Shown in pieces: positions 4,767-18,962 of a stretch of DNA of 19,937 nucleotides (positions are counted from its first letter, which is position 1; the number at the start of each line of letters is the position of its first letter). The notes beneath the pieces are model-generated. The model was not told the DNA's origin and searched no databases. It was given only the letters and a program-made list of their open reading frames with translations. Source of the stretch: Chlamydiales bacterium (GTDB taxonomy: Bacteria; Chlamydiota; Chlamydiia; Chlamydiales; JBDQID01); the NCBI GenBank assembly GCA_047611865.1, contig JBLFWS010000054.1, positions 1 to 19,937 of the forward strand. The letters are read 5' to 3'. Position numbers and translations under genes: made by a program.

Positions 4767-5492
4767 TTATTGACCCTTTGGGATTGTCACCCCAAATTCC
4801 TCGTGCAAAACCTCAAGCATCAAAGGATATAGCACTATGGAGTTGGCTGACTTTAATTCTTCTTCCACTCGGGCTTTGAACATTTCGAGGTTTTCACCAT
4901 TTTCTTCCATCTCTTTCCGGTAGGTAAGAACGAGAGAATGCTTTTGGATTTGATCGTAATCTTCAGGGAGCATCTCTGATTGCTGACCAAAAAATATCTG
5001 GACTTCAGATCTGTCGCTTTCATGCAGGGCATTTAATATAGACTTGGCACCAGACAAGCTTAAGGCATTTTGATCCAGATCCAAAGCCGGACTTTTCAGT
5101 ACTTCATTGACAGCTAAGAAGGATCTGACTTTCAGCGCTGACGCTAAAGTGTTAGCACCCTCATCACTAAGTTCATTACATGATAGATCTACCGAGGCGA
5201 CTTTGGGGCTTTCCTTTAAAGCATTTGAGAGATCTGTTATGTTTGCGTTACTTAAACTCTTGCCTTTCAAATCAAGATGCGCTCCACGCCAACGATCAAA
5301 CAGGGCGGGTCGATTGCTCAGTTCTTCCTTGGAGTCTTTAAAATTGGGGTGATTGATAATTCTTTCAAAAAAAGATTGGAAGTCAGCGTCCATTTTTGAG
5401 TTAATATACTCTAACCACTGATCTTTACCTCTAAATTCACAAGGCTCTGGTATAATCAACAAACTCTGTAGGCTAGTTAAGGCAGAGGCCAT
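4767..5492 (-). CDS. leucine-rich repeat (ribonuclease-inhibitor-like) protein, candidate secreted effector
   Basis: Three LRR-like units: HLDLKGKSLSNANITDLSNAL, SVDLSCNELSDEGANTLASAL, ALDLDQNALSLSGAKSILNAL. Confidence 0.75.
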   Translation of the reverse strand: MASALTSLQSLLIIPEPCEFRGKDQWLEYINSKMDADFQSFFERIINHPNFKDSKEELSNRPALFDRWRGAHLDLKGKSLSNANITDLSNALKESPKVASVDLSCNELSDEGANTLASALKVRSFLAVNEVLKSPALDLDQNALSLSGAKSILNALHESDRSEVQIFFGQQSEMLPEDYDQIQKHSLVLTYRKEMEENGENLEMFKARVEEELKSANSIVLYPLMLEVLHEEFGVTIPKGQ

Positions 5493-5570: not shown

Positions 5571-5780
5571 GGTGTTGTTGCACAATTTAATACGTTTACA
5601 ATCATTTATTTAACCACAGAGAGCACCGAGAACACAGAGAGATAGAAAAATGCATAAGGTCTCTCAGAATATGCTATCAAGTGATCTGTGATTTTTTATT
5701 TTCTCTGTGCCCTCTGTGATCTCGGTGGTTAAATTTTAATCATAAGCCTCTTGTAGACGCATGTTTTATGCAACAACGCC
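5571..5780. mobile_element. 210-bp MITE with IS903-like (IS5 family) terminal inverted repeats and 9-bp target-site duplication
   Basis: TIR GGTGTTGTTGCACAA (5571-5585) / TTATGCAACAACGCC (5766-5780), 13/15 match. Flanking direct repeats GTTTAAAAC (5562-5570) and GTTTAAAAT (5781-5789). No transposase inside. Confidence 0.8.
5608..5734. repeat. nested inverted repeat built of three CAC(A/C)GAG heptamers at 9-nt period
   Basis: Left: ATTTAAC-CACAGAG-ag-CACCGAG-aa-CACAGAG. Right: CTCTGTG-cc-CTCTGTG-at-CTCGGTG-GTTAAAT. Confidence 0.85.
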
Positions 5781-5954
5781 GTTTAAAATCCAAATGGGCG
5801 AAAGGACGGGTTGTTCACCGAGCTTAAAATCTACAAAAGACTTTAAAAGCAAGCAAGCACTATGTGGTAAATACGTAGAAAACAGTGGATTTGGCTAGAA
5901 GAAATTTTAAAACAATGGTTTTTGTTCTACTGAGGGGAATGACGGTGATTTCTC

Positions 5955-5983
5955 TTGAGAAATATTACTCTTGAGGCTATTCT
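5955..5983 (+). promoter_or_regulatory. putative sigma66/sigma70 promoter of cdsZ(-rnpB)
   Basis: TTGAGA-17 nt-TATTCT, 80 nt upstream of the ATG. Overlapped by two CTCTTGAG motifs (5952-5959, 5968-5975). Confidence 0.4.
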
Positions 5984-6063
5984 AATATAGATGTAAAGGA
6001 AAAAGTATTTTCTAAACTAACTGTTTGGAATTTAGAAATTGATTTACCCCTGGGAAAAAAGCG

Positions 6064-6834
6064 ATGTTAGATTCTCTAAAAGATATCCTTGATGTTCAAG
6101 AACTGGACATTAAGATGATCCGTCTCATGCGCCTCAAAAGAGAACGTCAAAAAGAATTGGATAATATCCATAATTTGAGAACCGATCTACAGACTCAGCT
6201 CGAAGCCAAAGGTCTGGAGATTCTTGAACTCAAAAAAGATGTTCGTGTCAGTGAAGGCAAAATCGCAGAAGTAAAAGAAAAAATTCTAAAGCTTGAAGGT
6301 CAACAGAATAAAGTTAAAAAAGTTGAAGAATTTAACGCTTTGAGCCAGGAACTTTCTAGAGCAGAACGCGAGCGTACAAATGCCGAACAAGTCTTCTCAG
6401 ATGTCGTCGAGAAACTTACCATGGAAGAAGAAGGCATGGAAAGCATTAAAGAAAGTATCTCCTCTACTGATGAAAGCAGTCAGGTTTTTGAACAAGAACT
6501 CCTCGAAAGCATCGTCCGCATTAATGAAGAAGGGAAAGAGCTACTCCTACAACGCCGAGAGCTCGAAAAGCTTCCTGAACAGGAACTTATGGGTATATAC
6601 GACAAGCTTCTTCACAATAAAAAAGACCGCGTTATCGTTCCTATCGAAAATCGTACATGCAGTGGGTGCCACATTGTGCTTACGGCGCAACATGAAAACC
6701 TCGTACGTAAATGGGAAAGATTAGTCTATTGTGAGCATTGCTCTCGCATCCTATATTGGCCGGAAGGTGCTTCAGCTGACGGAAGTGAAACAGTTCCAAA
6801 ACGCCGCCGCAGACGTTCTACTACGGCAGTGTAA
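6064..6834 (+). CDS. cdsZ: coiled-coil / C4 zinc-ribbon protein, CT398 (CdsZ) / FlgZ family
   Basis: Long coiled coil followed by CSGCHIVL...CEHCSRILYW and a basic tail (PKRRRRR). Directly upstream of rnpB, as in Chlamydia. Confidence 0.88.
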   Translation: MLDSLKDILDVQELDIKMIRLMRLKRERQKELDNIHNLRTDLQTQLEAKGLEILELKKDVRVSEGKIAEVKEKILKLEGQQNKVKKVEEFNALSQELSRAERERTNAEQVFSDVVEKLTMEEEGMESIKESISSTDESSQVFEQELLESIVRINEEGKELLLQRRELEKLPEQELMGIYDKLLHNKKDRVIVPIENRTCSGCHIVLTAQHENLVRKWERLVYCEHCSRILYWPEGASADGSETVPKRRRRRSTTAV

Positions 6835-6843
6835 ACAAGTTTT

Positions 6844-7220
6844 TCTGGGAAGATGGGCAATCGCTGCCGCCATTCCACTTGTGGGTGGCGGGAGAGGAAA
6901 GTCCGGGCTTCATAGAAGGGGATACCAGTGAAATACTGGGGGCCGTAAGGCTACGGAAAGTGTAACAGAAAATAGACCGCAGGTGAGCTTGCTTACCAGA
7001 CAGGATGAAAATGCCAGGTTTAAGACCCGGCCAGACTTGGGGGAACTCAAGCTGCTACAAACCCTATCCGAAGCAAGACCTAAACAAGACATATAGCCAT
7101 TCTTCGTGGTGTTTTGGGCTGGTCGCTCGAGAATGTCGGTGACGGCATTCCTAGATGAATGATTGCTCACTGTAAGCAATTGCGTACAGTTGACAAGACC
7201 CGGCTTATAGTCTTCCCAGA
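6844..7220 (+). ncRNA. rnpB: RNase P RNA, bacterial type A
   Basis: P1 helix TCTGGGAAGA (6844-6853) / TCTTCCCAGA (7211-7220); GAGGAAAGTCCGGGCT; GGAAAGTGTAACAGAAAATAGACCGC; GAAGCAAG; CTAGATGAATGATTG; ACCCGGCTTA. Followed by a T-run. Confidence 0.97.
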
Positions 7221-7339
7221 CTTTTTTTTATTTTCCAATGATAGTTTTCATAGAGATCACGCAGAGAGGAGTTACTCCTTTCTGTACTCTCTTGTCTAAA
7301 TTAAGATTTAGATATTGGAAGAAACGATGAGTTTCCGTC

Positions 7340-7548: not shown

Positions 7549-8385
7549 CTACTCGAAAGAAAAACTATACGTAGAAGAGTTTGTGTTGAGATTATGGATG
7601 ACTTCACTTTTTATTAATCGATTTTCTCTTACATCATCGTTGATAGCATCATAGGCATCCCAAGTGATATGGGAGTAGACGTATGATTCATTTGGAGTGA
7701 TTCGGAGGTGGACAAAGGGGTCTTTGTCGTGATTTTCAAAAACAACATTTTCTATAGGGACATTTTTTAGAAGGCTCTTATTCTTCATAAAAAAGGTGGC
7801 AACTTTGTGGTTTAGGTCTACACAGGTACGGGAATTAAAAAGTCGTGAGATTCGAGTAAGTTGATTATGTGCGTATTTATCATCAGGAAGAAGCTTTATG
7901 ATTTTTCTCACGCAGGAGTCAAAATCTTCGCAGCGAATATCGTTTATATAGTATTCCATCCTGCCAAAATCGTCTTTCATGGAGGATTCGACACCCAGAA
8001 GATTGTTTTGTAGTTCATAGTTAGTTAATTGAGAGTCAAAAGGGTAGCCACAGATTGCAACCATTGGCTGTCCTCTTTCGCCGGGGAAATCATGGAGTGT
8101 TTCTTTGAAGTTTAATTTGTAAGATTTAGAGGCTATCCGATGAATGCCAAGTCCAGCAAGGGCAATGGTACTGATGGCAAAGATAGCGGGGCAGGCAAAG
8201 CCTACGACAACTTTAAATAGTATAAGGCCACCTGTGGTGGTGGATGTCGCTGCAAGGGACGAAAGAGCGGTATTGGAAATTAAATTGGACGATGGGGTGA
8301 TCTTCTTTAAAAGATCTTTGGAGATTTCATCAGCTTCATGGGTAAGGACTAAGGGTACTATTTCCATTGATGAGATACCTGTCAT
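7549..8385 (-). CDS. hypothetical membrane protein with N-terminal extended hydrophobic segment (Inc-like candidate)
   Basis: 278 aa, with an approximately 40-aa hydrophobic stretch (ALSSLAATSTTTGGLILFKVVVGFACPAIFAISTIALAGLGI). The start overlaps the folE stop (ATGA). Confidence 0.65.
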   Translation of the reverse strand: MTGISSMEIVPLVLTHEADEISKDLLKKITPSSNLISNTALSSLAATSTTTGGLILFKVVVGFACPAIFAISTIALAGLGIHRIASKSYKLNFKETLHDFPGERGQPMVAICGYPFDSQLTNYELQNNLLGVESSMKDDFGRMEYYINDIRCEDFDSCVRKIIKLLPDDKYAHNQLTRISRLFNSRTCVDLNHKVATFFMKNKSLLKNVPIENVVFENHDKDPFVHLRITPNESYVYSHITWDAYDAINDDVRENRLIKSEVIHNLNTNSSTYSFSFE

Positions 8386-12581: not shown

Positions 12582-13277
12582 TTATAGCTTGTTGTCGAGC
12601 TGTGCTTCAAAGATGTCTCTGGCATGATGCTCTCCGTCTACAAAAAAGGCGTAACAGGTATTGTCTCCATGGTTCATATTTACTGATTTGTAAAGAATTC
12701 CATCGCCTCCAAAATTTCTTATATAGTGAGCAAGACGTTGACTAATCTTAGGGATTTTCTGGAGACCCCAAGCTGCGCCAGTGGGAAATTCATTGATTAG
12801 TTGAATTAGGTTAGGGTAGTGAAAGTTTTTTTCTATGAGTTCTTCAATGCTCCACAATTCAATATTTTTTCGTTTTGGAATAAGTTCATATTCTTTTCCA
12901 TCTCTTTTGATGGAGTCGCCATAGAATTCAGTTCTGGCACATTCAATAGTTTGAGAAGCGTAGAGGCATACCCCGACTTCAATGTTTGGAAGGAAGGTGA
13001 GCTGAGAGGCCCCAATGCAAAATCGGGAACCAAATGCAAAGTTACCGGTGAGTTCGAAAGGTTCTCTGTTTTTGCCAACAATTCGAAATATTGGAATATT
13101 GGATATATTTTTTAGGGAGTTGCGATTAGGTATTGGCTTCTCGTCTTTGAGCCACTGGTTAAATTGACTTAGATCATCTAAATCGGAGATCCAGGAGGAG
13201 ATAGTTTCCAAGGCTTTTTCATTAGCATTATCAAAGTCTGTTTGAAAGAGGTGAAGGTCGCTAGGGTCAAATGTCAT
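12582..13277 (-). CDS. RES domain toxin (putative NAD+ phosphorylase / ADP-ribosyltransferase fold)
   Basis: IFRI...GSRF (R)...LYASQTIECARTEF (E)...GDGILYKSV (S)...CYAFF. Lies 18 nt downstream of an antitoxin-like gene. Confidence 0.8.
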   Translation of the reverse strand: MTFDPSDLHLFQTDFDNANEKALETISSWISDLDDLSQFNQWLKDEKPIPNRNSLKNISNIPIFRIVGKNREPFELTGNFAFGSRFCIGASQLTFLPNIEVGVCLYASQTIECARTEFYGDSIKRDGKEYELIPKRKNIELWSIEELIEKNFHYPNLIQLINEFPTGAAWGLQKIPKISQRLAHYIRNFGGDGILYKSVNMNHGDNTCYAFFVDGEHHARDIFEAQLDNKL

Positions 13278-13295
13278 TTGCAGCTCAGTGTAAAG

Positions 13296-13664
13296 TTAAA
13301 CTCGTTCTTCTAGCCAGTTAAGTATGATATCTCCTTTACCCTGAACTATCCAGTCGATTGGAGCTCTATTGAAGAAAAATTGATTGGGCATTCTAAGCCA
13401 GTTAATGGCTTTTTCCTTATCATTTTGGACAAATTTAAAGGCTAGATCAGCGATTTTAACTAAGTTGAATAAATTCTCTCTTGAGGATTCTTTGATTTTA
13501 GCTGTATTTTGCCTATAAAGTGTTTGACGTGAGATCTTTAGGAATTCTTTTAATTCAACAATACTAGGCACAAGGGCTTTAAGAGTGACTAGATCCGATT
13601 TTTTCTGATCGCTAGTCAAAATGCTTAAGCTGTCGGGGTAATGACCCGTTGTTGGTGAACCCAT
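13296..13664 (-). CDS. Xre-HTH / MbcA-ParS-type antitoxin
   Basis: HTH-like LKEFLKISRQTLYR; C-terminal KAINWLRMPNQFFFNRAPIDWIVQGKGDIILNWL. Start placed at ATG 13664 behind AGGAGG (13672-13677). Confidence 0.85.
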   Translation of the reverse strand: MGSPTTGHYPDSLSILTSDQKKSDLVTLKALVPSIVELKEFLKISRQTLYRQNTAKIKESSRENLFNLVKIADLAFKFVQNDKEKAINWLRMPNQFFFNRAPIDWIVQGKGDIILNWLEERV

Positions 13665-13686
13665 ATGTTTACCTCCTGTCATGCTG

Positions 13687-14865: not shown

Positions 14866-15663
14866 CTAGTTTAAGGTAGCACGGGCTGTATCAAAGGTAA
14901 TGGCTCTACTTATCTTGTCCTGAAAGGCGATGGAAAATTCTATGCTATCGGCCTTATCACCAAGGGCTTCTTTAACAGTTTCCAGGGCGAGGGCGGGTTC
15001 GTTGCATTCACCGGAAAGGTGGGCCAGGTGAACGTGCTTGAGCTTTGGAGACCATACCTCTTTGAGAAGTTTTCCGCAGTCTTCGTTGGATAGGTGGCCA
15101 CTTCTGCTTAGGACACGCTGTTTGTATACATTGGGACGGGGGCAGGAGTAAACAAGAGCGGGGTCATGATTTGCTTCTACATACAGATAGTCACAGTCCT
15201 GTAACTGCTTTTGTACTAAAGAGGTAGCAAAGCCGAGGTCAGTGCAGATTCCGACCTTAATTTCTTCGTACTTAACCGTAAAGGCTACTGGATCTGAGGT
15301 GTCGTGAGGGATGCTAAATGGGTGAATCAGTAAGTCGTTGAATTCAAAATTTTCACCGGTAGAAAAGATTTTAAATTTTGGGCAATCTCTAAGTTGATTG
15401 GTAATGCCCTTTGCTGTTTCACAATTAGCTAATACGGGTATGCCTTTTTTACATGCAAGAACCTTAAGGCCTTGTATGTGGTCGCCATGCTCGTGGCTTA
15501 CAATTATGGCGTCAATATCGTCGATATCAACACCTATTTCTTCAAGTTTCTTAACAGTCGCACGACCACTGATGCCGCAGTCAAAAAGTACTTTCGTCTT
15601 TTGAGTGCCAAAAAATATGCTGTTTCCTCGAGAACCAGAGGCGAGTGGACAAAAACCAATCAT
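14866..15663 (-). CDS. MBL-fold metallo-hydrolase, YycJ/WalJ-like
   Basis: LASGSRGNS, DCG, SHEHGDH, PHD, TDLG, EANHD, GHLSN, LAHLSGECN. Confidence 0.9.
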   Translation of the reverse strand: MIGFCPLASGSRGNSIFFGTQKTKVLFDCGISGRATVKKLEEIGVDIDDIDAIIVSHEHGDHIQGLKVLACKKGIPVLANCETAKGITNQLRDCPKFKIFSTGENFEFNDLLIHPFSIPHDTSDPVAFTVKYEEIKVGICTDLGFATSLVQKQLQDCDYLYVEANHDPALVYSCPRPNVYKQRVLSRSGHLSNEDCGKLLKEVWSPKLKHVHLAHLSGECNEPALALETVKEALGDKADSIEFSIAFQDKISRAITFDTARATLN

Positions 15664-15786
15664 TTTACCATCCGTAAATCATTAAACGCAGACTATATGA
15701 CCTCATGGAGCTTTTTTCCGCAAGAAAATACCCTTAGATCAAAGAGGTATTAGCTACTTCATTAGTTTTTGGTCAATTCACTGAAG

Positions 15787-15802
15787 TGGCATTCAATTTG
15801 CA
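15787..15802 (+). promoter_or_regulatory. sigma54 (RpoN) -24/-12 promoter
   Basis: TGGCATTCAATTTGCA matches TGGCAC-N5-TTGCW with exact GG-N10-GC spacing. Correctly oriented, about 70 nt upstream of the fliS operon. Confidence 0.8.
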
Positions 15803-15869
15803 TAATCAAAAACGGTAAACACTACGAATAATTTAAGAAGCGTCATTGCGTTGTGTATAACTTTTATAA

Positions 15870-16556
15870 ATGGAGCGATGTGGAGCTATGCAAATCATTA
15901 TAGAAGAACACAACCTTGAATGGGATCTCGATAAGAGAGAGGTCACTATACAGCAGGTTGTGGATGAGGTGGAAATATTCCTATTTTCCGTCGGTAAAGT
16001 TCCTGTGGGACTATCTATTGATGGGCACGTTCTTACGCAGGAAGAATTAGAATCCTGGCAGGAAAGAACTGTAGGAAAAGATCAGGTGCTGGAGTTTGAA
16101 GTCTCAGAGCTGTCAGTCTTTTTGATAGATAACCTTAGCGGGGCAAATGAAGCCAATGCAGAACTCATTAATAGCATTAATGTTTTTGCTGATGAGCTGT
16201 ATGCTTCTACTAAGTCTGTAAATCCTAAAGAGGTTGTTGAAAATATTCGGAATTTTTTCTTCTTTTGGACGCGGTTGCATAGGTTGGTTCCAAAGGTTTT
16301 TGAAACCGTGGAATTTGACGGAAAAAAATTCCAGCAGTGGTCGGATGATTTGCAGGATATCTTCAAAGAAATCGTCGGTGCTATGGAAGATGAAGATAGT
16401 GTTTTGGCTGCTGACCTTCTTCAGTATGAGATTGTCCCAGCCATTGAAGCTATAGATACTTCGGTAGGGCTGTTGAAAGAAAGTGTTGAACGGATTTCGA
16501 GTTCAGATGAAGAAGAAAAGGTAGAGGGTAGTGGAAAAATTAAAGAAAAAAAATAA
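15870..16556 (+). CDS. acidic hypothetical protein, first gene of the fliS operon
   Basis: 228-aa ORF (alternative start ATG 15888). N-terminal beta-rich part (VGLSIDG) and a helical C-terminal motif (EIVGAMEDEDSVLAADLLQYEI) that resembles, from recall, hypothetical proteins in flagellar loci. Confidence 0.7.
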   Translation: MERCGAMQIIIEEHNLEWDLDKREVTIQQVVDEVEIFLFSVGKVPVGLSIDGHVLTQEELESWQERTVGKDQVLEFEVSELSVFLIDNLSGANEANAELINSINVFADELYASTKSVNPKEVVENIRNFFFFWTRLHRLVPKVFETVEFDGKKFQQWSDDLQDIFKEIVGAMEDEDSVLAADLLQYEIVPAIEAIDTSVGLLKESVERISSSDEEEKVEGSGKIKEKK

Positions 16557-16604
16557 AGGCTGCAAGCCGAGATTTAAACACTCTGAAAATAGAGAGGGTG
16601 AAAC

Positions 16605-17048
16605 ATGAGCGATAATAAGGATAAGGATGTCGCCAGGATGTATAAGCGTAAGCAAATTGAATCTGCTTCGCCTGGTAGGCTCATTGTGATGCTATATGAT
16701 GCAGTCTTAGACAATCTTAAGAAAGCTGAAGAAGTCATAACTGGAGATGAAGCGGATCGCTTCGAAAAGTTTCATAATCATATGATGACGAGTCAGAATA
16801 TTATTACGGAACTCACTGTTGCTTTGGATATGGAGAAAGGTGGAGAAATCGCCAAAAACCTGTTCCGATTATATGACTTTTGCAACTGGAGACTGGTAGA
16901 TGGTAATGTCAAGAAGGACACAAAAGCTATCCAGGAAGTAAGAAAAGTATTGGAGGTTCTTAAATCAGGATGGGAAGAAATACAAGATACTCCAATTCCT
17001 GATGGTGACATCAAAAAACTTAATCAAGGTCTTAATTTACAAGGGTAA
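16605..17048 (+). CDS. fliS: flagellin export chaperone FliS
   Basis: Y..QIESASPGRLIVMLYD, QNIITELTVALDMEKGGEIAKNLFRLYDF..WRL...N, VL..LKSGW: the classical FliS signature. GAGAGG RBS. Confidence 0.93.
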   Translation: MSDNKDKDVARMYKRKQIESASPGRLIVMLYDAVLDNLKKAEEVITGDEADRFEKFHNHMMTSQNIITELTVALDMEKGGEIAKNLFRLYDFCNWRLVDGNVKKDTKAIQEVRKVLEVLKSGWEEIQDTPIPDGDIKKLNQGLNLQG

Positions 17049-17050
17049 GT

Positions 17051-17464
17051 ATGGATTGGGCATCGGAACTCGTCACAAATTTGCAGGAAAAGTTGGATCA
17101 AGCTCTGGAAAATGTCAATGCCTTGCATAAGGCATCTTCCGGAAATATTGACGGCGAAGACTTTAAGTGCTTGCAAAGTCAGCAAGATGAAATCTTATCA
17201 CAGCTCTTAGAAGCGGACCAAAAACTATGCAAAGAATATGGATCAAAATGGTATGCCCAAAAACCCCTTAGTCATCTGCAGATTAAGGACAAAATTAAAG
17301 CTATTGAAGAGCTTAATAGCTGTTTTATTGAAAATATGAAGGTCAGGAAAGGACTCCTGGAAATAGAACTTCAGGGATTAAGCAAAACTAAGAGAACGTT
17401 CTCTAAAATGAAAACTTATTATGGGAAGGTAAAAAAAAGGCTCCGCATCAATGTCTTCTCATAA
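17051..17464 (+). CDS. helical flagellar chaperone-like protein (FliT/FlgN-like)
   Basis: 137 aa, apparently coiled-coil/helical, starting 2 nt after the fliS stop. Position and size match fliT/flgN. Confidence 0.55.
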   Translation: MDWASELVTNLQEKLDQALENVNALHKASSGNIDGEDFKCLQSQQDEILSQLLEADQKLCKEYGSKWYAQKPLSHLQIKDKIKAIEELNSCFIENMKVRKGLLEIELQGLSKTKRTFSKMKTYYGKVKKRLRINVFS

Positions 17465-17481
17465 ATAGAGTCAAAAATATT

Positions 17482-17509
17482 GAAAAGCGGCAAAAAAATG
17501 CCGCTTTTC
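17482..17509. terminator. bidirectional intrinsic terminator between the fliS operon and dnaJ
   Basis: Perfect 11-bp stem GAAAAGCGGCA-aaaaaa-TGCCGCTTTTC between convergent genes. Confidence 0.85.
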
Positions 17510-17563
17510 TTGATCCGGGATTACCGTTTACGAATGGGTACTGGAACTTAAGAAGTCAATACC

Positions 17564-18715
17564 CTAAGAGTTCGAAAAAAAAGATTTAATTTTCTCTAAA
17601 AAGCTCTCTTTCGTCGGTAAATTGTGTGCTAACTCCGTCTCCCCAAAGGCTCCTAGAAGTTTTTTCTGATCGTCGCTCAAAGCTGTAGGGGTCTCAACCA
17701 GAACTCGTACAAGAAGGTCTCCCTTGCCTTGACCGTGCAGATTTGGAAAGCCTTCACCGCGAATACGGAAGATTTTCCCTGTCTGGGTTCCTTCTGGGAT
17801 TGTTATGCGTGCTGCCCTGGATAGAAGTGCGGGAATGTCTTTCTTGCACCCAAGACCAGCTTCTGCAAAACCAATAGGAAGATCTAGGATGATATCGTCG
17901 CCGTGGCGGTCAAAGACGTTATGAGGCTGCACCTTGATGAAAACGTATAAGTCCCCGGGAGGACCGCCACCTTCACCAGCGTCACCGTAACCAGCCATCT
18001 TCAGGCGGGTTCCAGTATCAACACCTGCAGGTACGGGAATTTTTATCGTCTGCTTCGATTTCACACGACCGACTCCATGGCAGGAAGAGCAGGGGTCAGT
18101 AATAATTTCACCTTCACCATGACATTGCGGACACGTTGTGGCCATAGTAAAAAAACCACGACTTTGCATTAGTTGACCAGAGCCACCGCAACGGCTACAG
18201 GTTTGAATGCCGTTCTTGGAGGTAGTTCCTTGTCCACGGCAGGGGTCGCAGTTGACGTAATTTGTAATGATTGCTTCCTTCTCCACCCCGGTAGCGGCTT
18301 CCTTGAAGGTTAGGGTAACAGTAATTTTTTTGCTTGCACCCTGACGGGCATGACCTCCACCACCAGAGCCTCCTCCAAAGAAAGAGTCGAAGACAGAATC
18401 TCCGCCACCCATTCCTCCACCAAAGGCTCCCATGAACGTCCTAAGAGCGTCTTCCATTGAGTCAAAGCCCTGATGGCCTCCACCGCCGCCAGCTCCTTGA
18501 AGTCCGGCCTTGCCATAGCGGTCGTAAACTTCACGTTTCTGCTTGTCGGAAAGAACCTCGTAGGCTTCAGAGATCTCTTTAAAATGGGCCTCCGCATCGG
18601 GGTTGCCCTGATTCTTGTCGGGGTGATATTTTATTGCCATTTTTCGGTATGCCTTTTTGATCTCCTCGGGAGTCGCATCTCGGGAAATCTCTAGACATTC
18701 GTAGTACTCAGTCAT
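17564..18715 (-). CDS. dnaJ: molecular chaperone DnaJ
   Basis: J domain with HPD, G/F-rich linker, four CxxCxGxG repeats and C-terminal domain. Start placed at ATG 18715 (MTEYY); upstream alternatives extend to 18730. Confidence 0.97.
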
Positions 18716-18962
18716 TGTATCCATAGCCACTTTGGTAAATGGTTGCTTAGTTTACTCAATTGTTATGACACAGAAAGCGTTTTTTAAAACAGCTTTTAGC
18801 AGAAATGAACTCAGAGTGTCAAAAAAGAAAAGGGGAGTCACAGGGGGGGGGGAAGGTCTTAAAATAAGAAAAAAGATAAAAAGACCCTCAAAAAAAAATC
18901 AATCCCGGAGCAAGACAGTCAGTTTAATGACTTGTATGACAACGGGACTGTTACCTGAGAGT

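Follow-up and report, generated by a model that had tools for sequence, protein, structure and literature searches.

A Flagellin-Chaperone Operon with a Sigma54-Type Promoter Motif in a Flagellated Chlamydia

Organization of the Operon

The window analyzed here, a stretch of 19,937 nucleotides, is contig JBLFWS010000054.1 (C54) of a Chlamydiales bacterium (assembly GCA_047611865.1, labeled G000; its other contigs are likewise written as C and a number), and it contains a three-gene operon composed of orf1, fliS, and orf3. The operon is a variant of the fliS–fliT unit in a kind of organism that is already known, and the sigma54 site that precedes it is specific to one clade. The features of the locus are as follows.

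15787 to 15802, plus strand: sigma54-type −24/−12 motif TGGCATTCAATTTGCA (TGGCAT-TCAAT-TTGCA), 18.2 bits on a matrix from relatives
15777 to 15806, plus strand: weak sigma70/sigma66-type match TTCACT-18-CATAAT (9/12), overlapping the sigma54 motif
15888 to 16556, plus strand: orf1, 222 residues, TP0873_N and DUF8042, likely a GlfM-type adaptor; ATG start after GGAG
16605 to 17048, plus strand: fliS, flagellin export chaperone, 147 residues (PF02561, TIGR00208)
17051 to 17464, plus strand: orf3, 137 residues, three-helix FliT/FlgN fold, likely FliT by fold model and position
17482 to 17509, no strand assigned, between orf3 and dnaJ: GC hairpin with A/T tracts flanking both sides, candidate two-way intrinsic terminator
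14866 to 15663, minus strand: metallo-beta-lactamase-fold (yycJ-like) gene, a divergent metallo-hydrolase and conserved upstream neighbor (Pfam, neighborhood)
17564 to 18730, minus strand: dnaJ, convergent neighbor; three non-flagellated relatives likewise have dnaJ beside the orf3 relic

An earlier note, made from the sequence alone, had recognized three close plus-strand genes with an unambiguous fliS, situated between a yycJ-like gene and dnaJ with neither fliC nor fliD alongside, a description that the list of open reading frames (ORFs) and the family searches bear out. FliS matches PF02561 with an E value of 1.8e-37 (128.5 versus 26.7 bits) and TIGR00208 with a score of 89.7 against a cutoff of 53.75, and the window itself has no fliC or fliD, both of which sit on other contigs of G000. 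The gene at 14866–15663 is presumably yycJ-like, a name taken from that note. The first gene of the operon, anonymous in the note, is corrected here to a DUF8042/GlfM-like protein; an alternative in-frame ATG at 15870 is judged the less likely start. The hairpin at 17482–17509 is called by the terminator scanner on the minus strand only, that is, on the dnaJ side. On the plus strand, the GC stem of the hairpin is followed by TTTTCTTG, and the region 17465–17563 folds with a z score of −4.17; because of this tract and this fold, the hairpin is considered a candidate two-way terminator. Of the terminator proposed earlier for the operon, the hairpin stands, and its function on the plus strand is that of a candidate.

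Flagellar Gene Set of the Host Genome

The window belongs to a 3.59-Mb bin that is 95.5% complete and comprises 272 contigs with 2.5% contamination. The GC content is 0.425 for the operon contig and 0.415 for the genome. CdsZ, encoded on the same contig, exceeds its NCBIfam equivalog cutoff (349.8 versus 275), Hc1 is encoded in the genome, and the named homologues of orf1 and orf3 come from Chlamydiales. These markers agree with the earlier placement in Chlamydiota, and by them the contig is of chlamydial origin. A search for Chlam_OMP6 gave no match, in a run in which no positive control responded.

With E. coli protein queries and Pfam, G000 was found to encode flgB–L, flgA, flgN, fliW, flhA/B, an FlhF-type GTPase, fliA, fliD–R, and motA/B, as well as cheA/W and one methyl-accepting chemotaxis protein; fliL falls below its Pfam cutoff, and no flgM, flhDC, cheR, or cheZ was found with the queries used. 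Flagellin_N matches above the cutoff number 11, one of which is FlgL. RpoN (TIGR02395, 402.7 versus 277.35), FliA, and two full sigma54 activators are encoded as well, and rpoN and fliA are present in 5/5 and 9/9, respectively, of the flagellated relatives searched. A second, non-flagellar type III export set is also found in G000. Judged by its gene content, G000 is a flagellated chlamydia with a near-complete flagellar gene set. The genes that the earlier note had singled out for a genome-wide search (fliC, fliD, flgK/L, motA/B, rpoN, and activators) are all encoded, and of the two readings that it had offered, that of a flagellated chlamydia with a sigma54-type site in a real flagellar set is the one upheld. 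Flagellated marine chlamydiae, including FliS and a FliS tree that places it beside Verrucomicrobia, are already described in the available text of Collingro et al. 2017 (PMC5604735).

The flagellins of G000 include four tandem genes for proteins of ~608 residues and several short (~265 residues) and divergent flagellin-like genes (C21:12472–21453, C21:5253, C227, C268, C122, C85, and C35). In this genome, fliW adjoins flgL, and flgE is unusually long (933 residues).

Distribution and Phylogeny of FliS

A flagellin client for FliS is encoded in the same genome. The distribution of the operon genes was surveyed by single-query searches in a sample of 60 relatives from the same order, 9 flagellin-positive and 51 flagellin-negative, among which kin are not independent. 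Both FliS and orf1 occur in 8/9 flagellin-positive relatives, the genome that lacks them being 68% complete, versus 0/51 flagellin-negative relatives. The gene order orf1–fliS–orf3 is found in all eight FliS-positive relatives, interrupted in one by a contig end, and yycJ lies upstream in five. Because neither FliS nor orf1 occurs where flagellin is missing, repurposing of FliS is not supported; the second reading of the earlier note, that the chaperones serve other type III substrates, finds no support for FliS and orf1 and could apply only to orf3, in relatives without flagella.

In a tree of 38 of 93 FliS rows, from which most Treponema and the longest branches were left out (a quick tree covered all 93), the 12 chlamydial FliS proteins form one clade (support 99/95), sister to eight Verrucomicrobiota/Lentisphaeria-type rows (93/82). 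The FliS proteins of loci L179 and L178 group with that of the window (100/96). The single chlamydial clade agrees with the tree in the available text of PMC5604735.

Predicted Structure and Genomic Context of orf1

Precomputed Pfam assignments give orf1 a TP0873_N domain and a DUF8042 domain, and the Atlas value for orf1 is 0.96; Pfam and NCBIfam scans of orf1 itself returned no family. The model, with a mean predicted local distance difference test score of 84, is composed of an N-terminal β-grasp-like domain, which has weak ThiS matches, and a four-helix bundle (helices 75–105, 113–133, 148–167, and 171–218). Foldseek searches with the orf1 and orf3 models gave no match at E ≤0.001, and a wide fold search of orf1 retrieved generic four-helix bundles only (best Z 11.2), and neither Maf nor FliS was among the entries listed. 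No plasmid match was found for orf1, no RNA holder was listed, and a literature match for TP0873 proved to be a primer name and hence was not informative.

GlfM, as characterized in the available part of a preprint (bioRxiv 10.1101/2023.12.03.569772), is an 89-residue four-helix adaptor encoded beside maf-2; without Asp77 of its last helix, it cannot bring Maf to flagellin. In orf1, Asp176 of the last helix is invariant in 25 aligned rows and forms a D-L-L-Q arrangement within AADLLQYE; short Bacillota homologues have D-x-x-E, and one shows F-R. By the published description of GlfM (D77-x-x-E80; F24-R25), Asp176 would correspond to its Asp77.

In a Bacillota-centered sample of 251 genomes, 42 have a match to the orf1 bundle, and among the best 30 of these 42 loci, maf adjoins the orf1 homologue in 27 and fliC, fliD, or fliS in 19, with the order maf–orf1–fliS in two (L344 and L352). 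The orf1-bundle homologue precedes a Maf-type gene (PF01973) and fliS in 6/6 Verrucomicrobiota/Lentisphaeria-type loci scanned, several of which have flagellin upstream. When longer proteins with the bundle fused to Maf were sought, a single ordinary orf1 homologue came up, which counts as weak evidence; none of the Mafs of G000 carries the bundle domain. There are 10 Maf genes in G000: two adjoin NeuB-like genes, the copy on C227 lies next to a flagellin gene, and the C228 copy carries a sigma28 motif. We take the two neighbors to be NeuB-like, one because it fits a known motif and the other by likeness. By fold, motif, and neighborhood, orf1 is probably an adaptor of the GlfM type that would bring a Maf glycosyltransferase to flagellin.

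The Maf-type (PF01973) genes of G000 lie on C120, C42, C67, C110, C227, C228, C85, and C78. Maf is also found in 50/60 relatives, mostly flagellin-free, and a MORN-like gene often follows.

orf3 and Its Relics in Non-Flagellated Relatives

Pfam and NCBIfam gave no FliT (PF05400) or FlgN (PF05130) match for orf3, and no FliT match in 55 homologues. Aligned with E. coli FliT, the orf3 family profile reaches an hhalign probability of 0.1, and it shows no link to the FlgN of G000; against PDB profiles, there is a weak match to FlgN (E 0.042), and the Atlas lead for orf3 is 0.89, with only 12% of members carrying FliT. The orf3 model folds into three long helices. Its best fold match among 48,161 chains is the flagellin-assembly chain 5gna (Z 11.3, root mean square deviation (rmsd) 2.0, 96 aligned), followed by FlgN 2fup (Z 10.8, rmsd 2.2, 95 aligned) and FliT 3h3m (Z 9.5, rmsd 1.7, 82 aligned). 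We take 5gna to be FliT. Entries of the FliT/FlgN type, two of them presumed to be such, account for 5 of the top 11 matches (Z 8.8–11.3). A separate FlgN is encoded between flgJ and flgK (C21:25481–26029, PF05130, E 1.6e-10) and fills that role. Because a Pfam-grade FlgN already lies before flgK, orf3, which directly follows fliS in a genome that encodes FliD, is modeled as likely FliT, the cap chaperone, rather than FlgN. In the label "fliT/flgN-like" given earlier, the fold is retained, and FlgN is the less likely half.

A broad orf3 profile, built from 55 of 150 matches, detects orf3 homologues in 15/51 flagellin-negative relatives, a count that depends on the profile because it was built partly from short forms. 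Six of these relics neighbor yycJ, dnaJ, or an FtsK-like gene at loci without orf1 and fliS, two of which read dnaJ–yycJ–orf3–ftsK; eight adjoin a dehydrogenase-like gene, seven of them forming a distinct clade, and one further match is weak. The FtsK-like and dehydrogenase-like labels are our presumption. The orf3 proteins of non-flagellated relatives retain their helical core but are without the C-terminal tail that is conserved in flagellated relatives. The orf3 tree does not separate the flagellated forms from the yycJ-linked relics. We read the orf3-only loci as the scar of an in-place deletion of orf1 and fliS. The clipped forms are at L310–L326 (15 non-flagellated relatives), and one dehydrogenase-adjacent clade has basic C-terminal tails.

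The Sigma54-Type Site before orf1

The motif TGGCATTCAATTTGCA has 0 mismatches to TGGCAY-N5-TTGCW, with GG and GC ten bases apart. It is intergenic and faces orf1 in the 224-nucleotide gap after the divergent metallo-hydrolase gene, where a strict site would arise by chance with a probability of 2.4e-4; the −24/−12 motif reported earlier is thereby confirmed. From the motif spacing, a transcription start near 15813 is predicted. Throughout G000, the strict motif was observed 21 times versus 7.6 expected, and wrong-spacer controls gave 8, 6, 10, and 5. Scored with a matrix whose training set consisted solely of 22 sites from relatives, the window site ranks 11th in G000. The overlapping sigma70-type match is weak, as 189/575 control upstream regions also reach 9/12.

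The site is also present before orf1 at L179, whose orf1 is 51% identical, and is absent from all eight other loci with upstream sequence, namely 7/7 GTDB relatives and L180 (L178 and G040 have no usable sequence upstream of orf1, and L181 duplicates L180). On this distribution, the sigma54 site at the operon is clade-specific, confined to the window and one close relative. A TTGAC element occurs 30–130 nucleotides upstream of orf1 in 7/9 relatives versus 314/2928 in the background, a post hoc count, chosen after the data were seen, on related genomes that are not independent; it suggests an older sigma66 promoter before orf1. Scoring of the relatives' upstream regions for sigma70-type promoters showed no excess over background. 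Of the sigma54 control put forward in the earlier note, the motif stands, with rpoN and activators encoded; as a general feature of the operon, it does not, as the eight other loci lack the site.

Other strict intergenic sigma54 sites in G000 precede uncharacterized small genes, a sulfotransferase-domain gene, and membrane proteins (C20:14651–15262, C83:981–1481, C63:2469–2933, C11:411–1724, C152:6062, and C51:6770–7324).

Sigma54 and Sigma28 Motifs across Flagellated Chlamydiae

Sigma54 sites in the relatives were accepted with GG and GC fixed, at most one mismatch, and a position shortly upstream of a gene. Such sites precede flgB in 7/7, flgF in 8/8, and fliK in 7/7 of the flagellated relatives in which the gene was found, versus 27/2903 ORFs in the background; the scan upstream of other flagellar genes that the earlier note had suggested gives sites before these three in all relatives tested. 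G000 and the same-family genome G001 have sites before all three genes and also before fliD. The conserved tiers are not a simple chain, because fliA lacks a conserved sigma54 site; sigma54 driving fliA is ruled out as a conserved feature (0/9 relatives). Two perfect sigma54 motifs lie in the region of the FlhF-type gene upstream of fliA (C257:950 and 1474, plus strand) and are not conserved in nine relatives.

A sigma28-type pattern, T(N)(A/C)AG-N16-CCGA(T/A/C)A, is found before 13/25 of the relatives' flagellin loci, a count for which the pattern had been drawn up from the same flagellin promoters, and before five flagellins and one Maf gene of G000; the background is 24/2838. Sigma28-type sites also occur before ~20 non-flagellar genes in G000.

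The activator on C17 of G000 is a CtcC/AtoC orthologue beside a PAS kinase; it keeps its helix-turn-helix (HTH) and falls below the FlgR and FlbD cutoffs. CtcC-type genes are present in 41/61 genomes (E 1e-60). A MinD/FlhG-like gene follows ctcC in 9/10 flagellated genomes, the tenth being at a contig edge, versus 3/20 non-flagellated loci examined. Retention of the CtcC HTH only in flagellated lineages is ruled out, as 13/20 non-flagellated loci keep it. Within 6 kb of ctcC, maf is found in 22/37 genomes that have both. The second sigma54 activator (C6:3593–4999), which has no adjacent kinase, occurs in 8/10 flagellated genomes and weakly in one other, and by this distribution it is a candidate flagellar-specific activator.

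A small helical gene precedes the ctcB–ctcC region (C17:46–3861 and 5574–6050 in G000; L299 and L300); it is FlgN/FliT-like by eye and has no NCBIfam match. The CdsZ gene (CT398-type zinc-ribbon) lies at 6064–6834 of the window, on the plus strand, 9 kb from the operon. CdsZ is a homologue of the RpoN-stabilizing FlgZ of H. pylori, according to PMC3372290.

Proposed Role of the Operon and Alternative Explanations

From gene identities by family and fold, gene order, co-occurrence with flagellin, and the motifs, we infer that this conserved three-gene operon probably prepares filament subunits for export and, in this lineage, is likely transcribed by sigma54. In the proposed mechanism, orf1 would dock a Maf glycosyltransferase onto flagellin, FliS, a predicted chaperone, would hold flagellin for export, and orf3, as FliT, would hold the FliD cap protein. 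Expression would proceed in tiers: sigma66 would make the export and motor parts and FliA, whose genes have no sigma54 motif; activated sigma54, with CtcB–CtcC as the likely activator, would make the rod and hook (flgB, flgF, and fliK–flgD–flgE); and sigma28 would make the flagellins. The clade of the window would have moved the operon and fliD from a sigma66-type promoter to the sigma54 tier, and the chaperones and cap would then be made just before flagellin.

Several points weigh against this proposal. At the promoter, 11 sites in G000 score at least 18.2 versus 6 in a reversed-genome control, so the score is not decisive and the sigma54 case is carried by position and conservation. The sigma66-type match overlaps the site, most other strong sigma54 sites in G000 precede non-flagellar genes, and the site is missing before orf1 outside the clade, before fliD in the other relatives (0/7), and before fliA in all nine; the sigma28 count has the circularity noted above. 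The operon could instead be flagellar and read by sigma66, as in most relatives, with the sigma54 motif idle, repressing, or secondary. The post hoc TTGAC element would fit this explanation, as would the available text of a chromatin immunoprecipitation (ChIP) study of C. trachomatis, in which only two true sigma54 targets remained and many predictions were overturned (PMC12282069). We consider it rather unlikely, given the perfect core and spacer in so short a gap, the retention of the site at L179 despite the divergence of orf1, the site gained in parallel before fliD within the family, and a sigma66-type match that is no better than one-third of the controls. For orf3, the Z scores lie within the range of generic helical bundles, with FliT and FlgN tied.

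The role of orf1 is open to a different objection, in addition to the descriptive nature of the GlfM comparison. In no chlamydial locus is maf adjacent to orf1, which travels with fliS in all of them; in the flagellated relative G004 (97% complete), orf1 is present and the search for Maf gave no match; and the Treponema homologue adjoins fliD, not maf. Moreover, most non-flagellated relatives keep Maf yet lack orf1, although a loss alongside flagellin would also be expected of a flagellin-specific adaptor. A role without Maf, in which orf1 is a FliS/FliT-like bundle that acts on flagellin or FliD as a chaperone or assembly factor for the filament, would account for these observations and has a real, if minor, chance of being correct; the maf neighbors in Bacillota and in the Verrucomicrobiota/Lentisphaeria-type loci, the Asp motif, and the four-helix fold as described for GlfM argue for the adaptor. 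That the chaperones were repurposed for non-flagellar type III substrates is very improbable. The second export set and the persistence of orf3 in flagellin-negative relatives are in keeping with repurposing, but G000 encodes a hook-basal body set along with flagellins and FliD, FliS and orf1 never occur in flagellin-negative genomes, and the surviving orf3 forms have lost the conserved tail. Scarcely credible is the explanation that the flagellar genes entered the bin as contamination or were acquired by recent transfer and that the operon is not native, for which the fragmented assembly and the questioned age of the chlamydial flagellum (PMC5826181) might be cited. The operon contig also holds CdsZ, RNase P RNA, RNase Z, and dnaJ at a GC content that matches the genome, chlamydial FliS is a single clade, and several families share the yycJ-linked locus, of which non-flagellated families keep a scar with orf3 alone; this linkage and the tree largely refute contamination and transfer.

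Implications for Chlamydial Late Gene Control

The operon alone is modest; its context bears on the retention of sigma54, sigma28, and CtcB–CtcC for late genes by a pathogen that is non-motile. In about ten chlamydial families, the predicted conserved targets are flagellar genes, which gives flagella defined promoters and a predicted timing. By analogy, this suggests that the late sigma54/sigma28 program of Chlamydia descends from flagellar control. A broader proposal, which we hold tentatively and would not yet call probable, is that the sigma54/CtcB–CtcC/sigma28 conversion program of Chlamydia is the skeleton of a flagellar hierarchy that is intact in flagellated chlamydiae, where it would build glycosylated flagella late and release swimming elementary bodies. 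Non-motile lineages would have lost flagella repeatedly and kept the regulators, the ctcC-adjacent Mafs, and a clipped FliT-like protein for non-flagellar clients. A lone orf3 left at the shared locus of non-flagellated families is what loss in place would predict. The findings bear on the debate over an ancestral flagellum in the phylum (the available text of PMC5604735 versus PMC5826181). They also point to flagellin glycosylation of the GlfM type in Chlamydiota and to Maf enzymes kept in non-motile members.

Other Features of the Window

A class A RNase P RNA is located directly after cdsZ, at 6845–7223 on the plus strand (Rfam, 247.9 bits). A RES-domain gene at 12582–13682 on the minus strand, with an Xre/MbcA-like partner, forms a probable toxin-antitoxin pair between xerC and RNase Z. 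The ORFs at 272–871, 4767–5492, and 7549–8385 on the minus strand are ankyrin-like, leucine-rich-repeat-like, and membrane-anchored, with weak Pfam matches only, and are of a kind often secreted by environmental chlamydiae.

Comparison with Known Systems

The fliD–fliS–fliT operon of E. coli and Salmonella has a sigma28/sigma70 promoter. Similar to that operon, the unit described here has fliS followed by a gene of FliT fold. The main differences are that fliD is on another contig, that a DUF8042 gene comes first, that no link between orf3 and FliT was detected by sequence, and that the predicted promoter is of the sigma54 type. In the sigma54/FlgSR/sigma28 hierarchy of Campylobacter and Helicobacter and the FleQ-FleN/FleSR system of Pseudomonas, sigma54 acts at rod and hook genes and sigma28 at flagellins. 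The chlamydial set resembles these systems in its sigma54 motifs at rod and hook genes, its sigma28 motifs at flagellins, and a kinase-activator pair with a MinD/FlhG-like gene after it. It differs in that the activator is a CtcC/AtoC orthologue, that the organism is of an obligate intracellular type, and that no FlgM is detected by the E. coli query.

The marine chlamydiae of PMC5604735 have, by the available text, the same complete flagellum beside a type III secretion system that is not flagellar and a monophyletic FliS sister to Verrucomicrobia, and an orf1 homologue named from the single-amplified genome AB-751-O23 is a further likeness to that flagellated set. The main text and supplements searched do not mention FliT or rpoN, nor do they treat promoters, operon partners, or a non-motile relic. 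Literature searches that covered neither bioRxiv supplements nor subscription papers, among them those about chlamydiae from sediments (e.g., Dharamshi 2020), turned up nothing on sigma54 or sigma28 promoters of chlamydial flagellar genes, on GlfM in these bacteria, or on the orf3 scar. As in the flagellin sialylation system of GlfM and Maf-2, as far as the available text of the preprint describes it, orf1 would combine a four-helix bundle with a last-helix Asp (D-x-x-E/Q) and has homologues beside maf, and the genome carries Maf and NeuB-like synthase genes. Compared with the 89-residue GlfM, orf1 has 222 residues and an additional N-terminal β-grasp-like domain, lies beside fliS rather than maf, and would work with at least one of 10 unlinked Mafs.

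Late gene control in C. trachomatis, according to the available texts of PMC12282069, PMC7482065, and PMC10597470, involves the same three sigma factors, a CtcB–CtcC pair, and the same sigma54 motif. Its sigma28 gene is driven by sigma66, and fliA here likewise has no conserved sigma54 site. CtcC of C. trachomatis is without a DNA-binding domain, whereas CtcC here keeps the HTH. Both sigma54 and sigma28 bind only late in C. trachomatis, with two targets each by ChIP (PMC12282069), and a flagellum-like hierarchy has been offered there only as "highly speculative" (PMC10597470). In flagellated chlamydiae, by contrast, the conserved predicted targets are flagellar genes.

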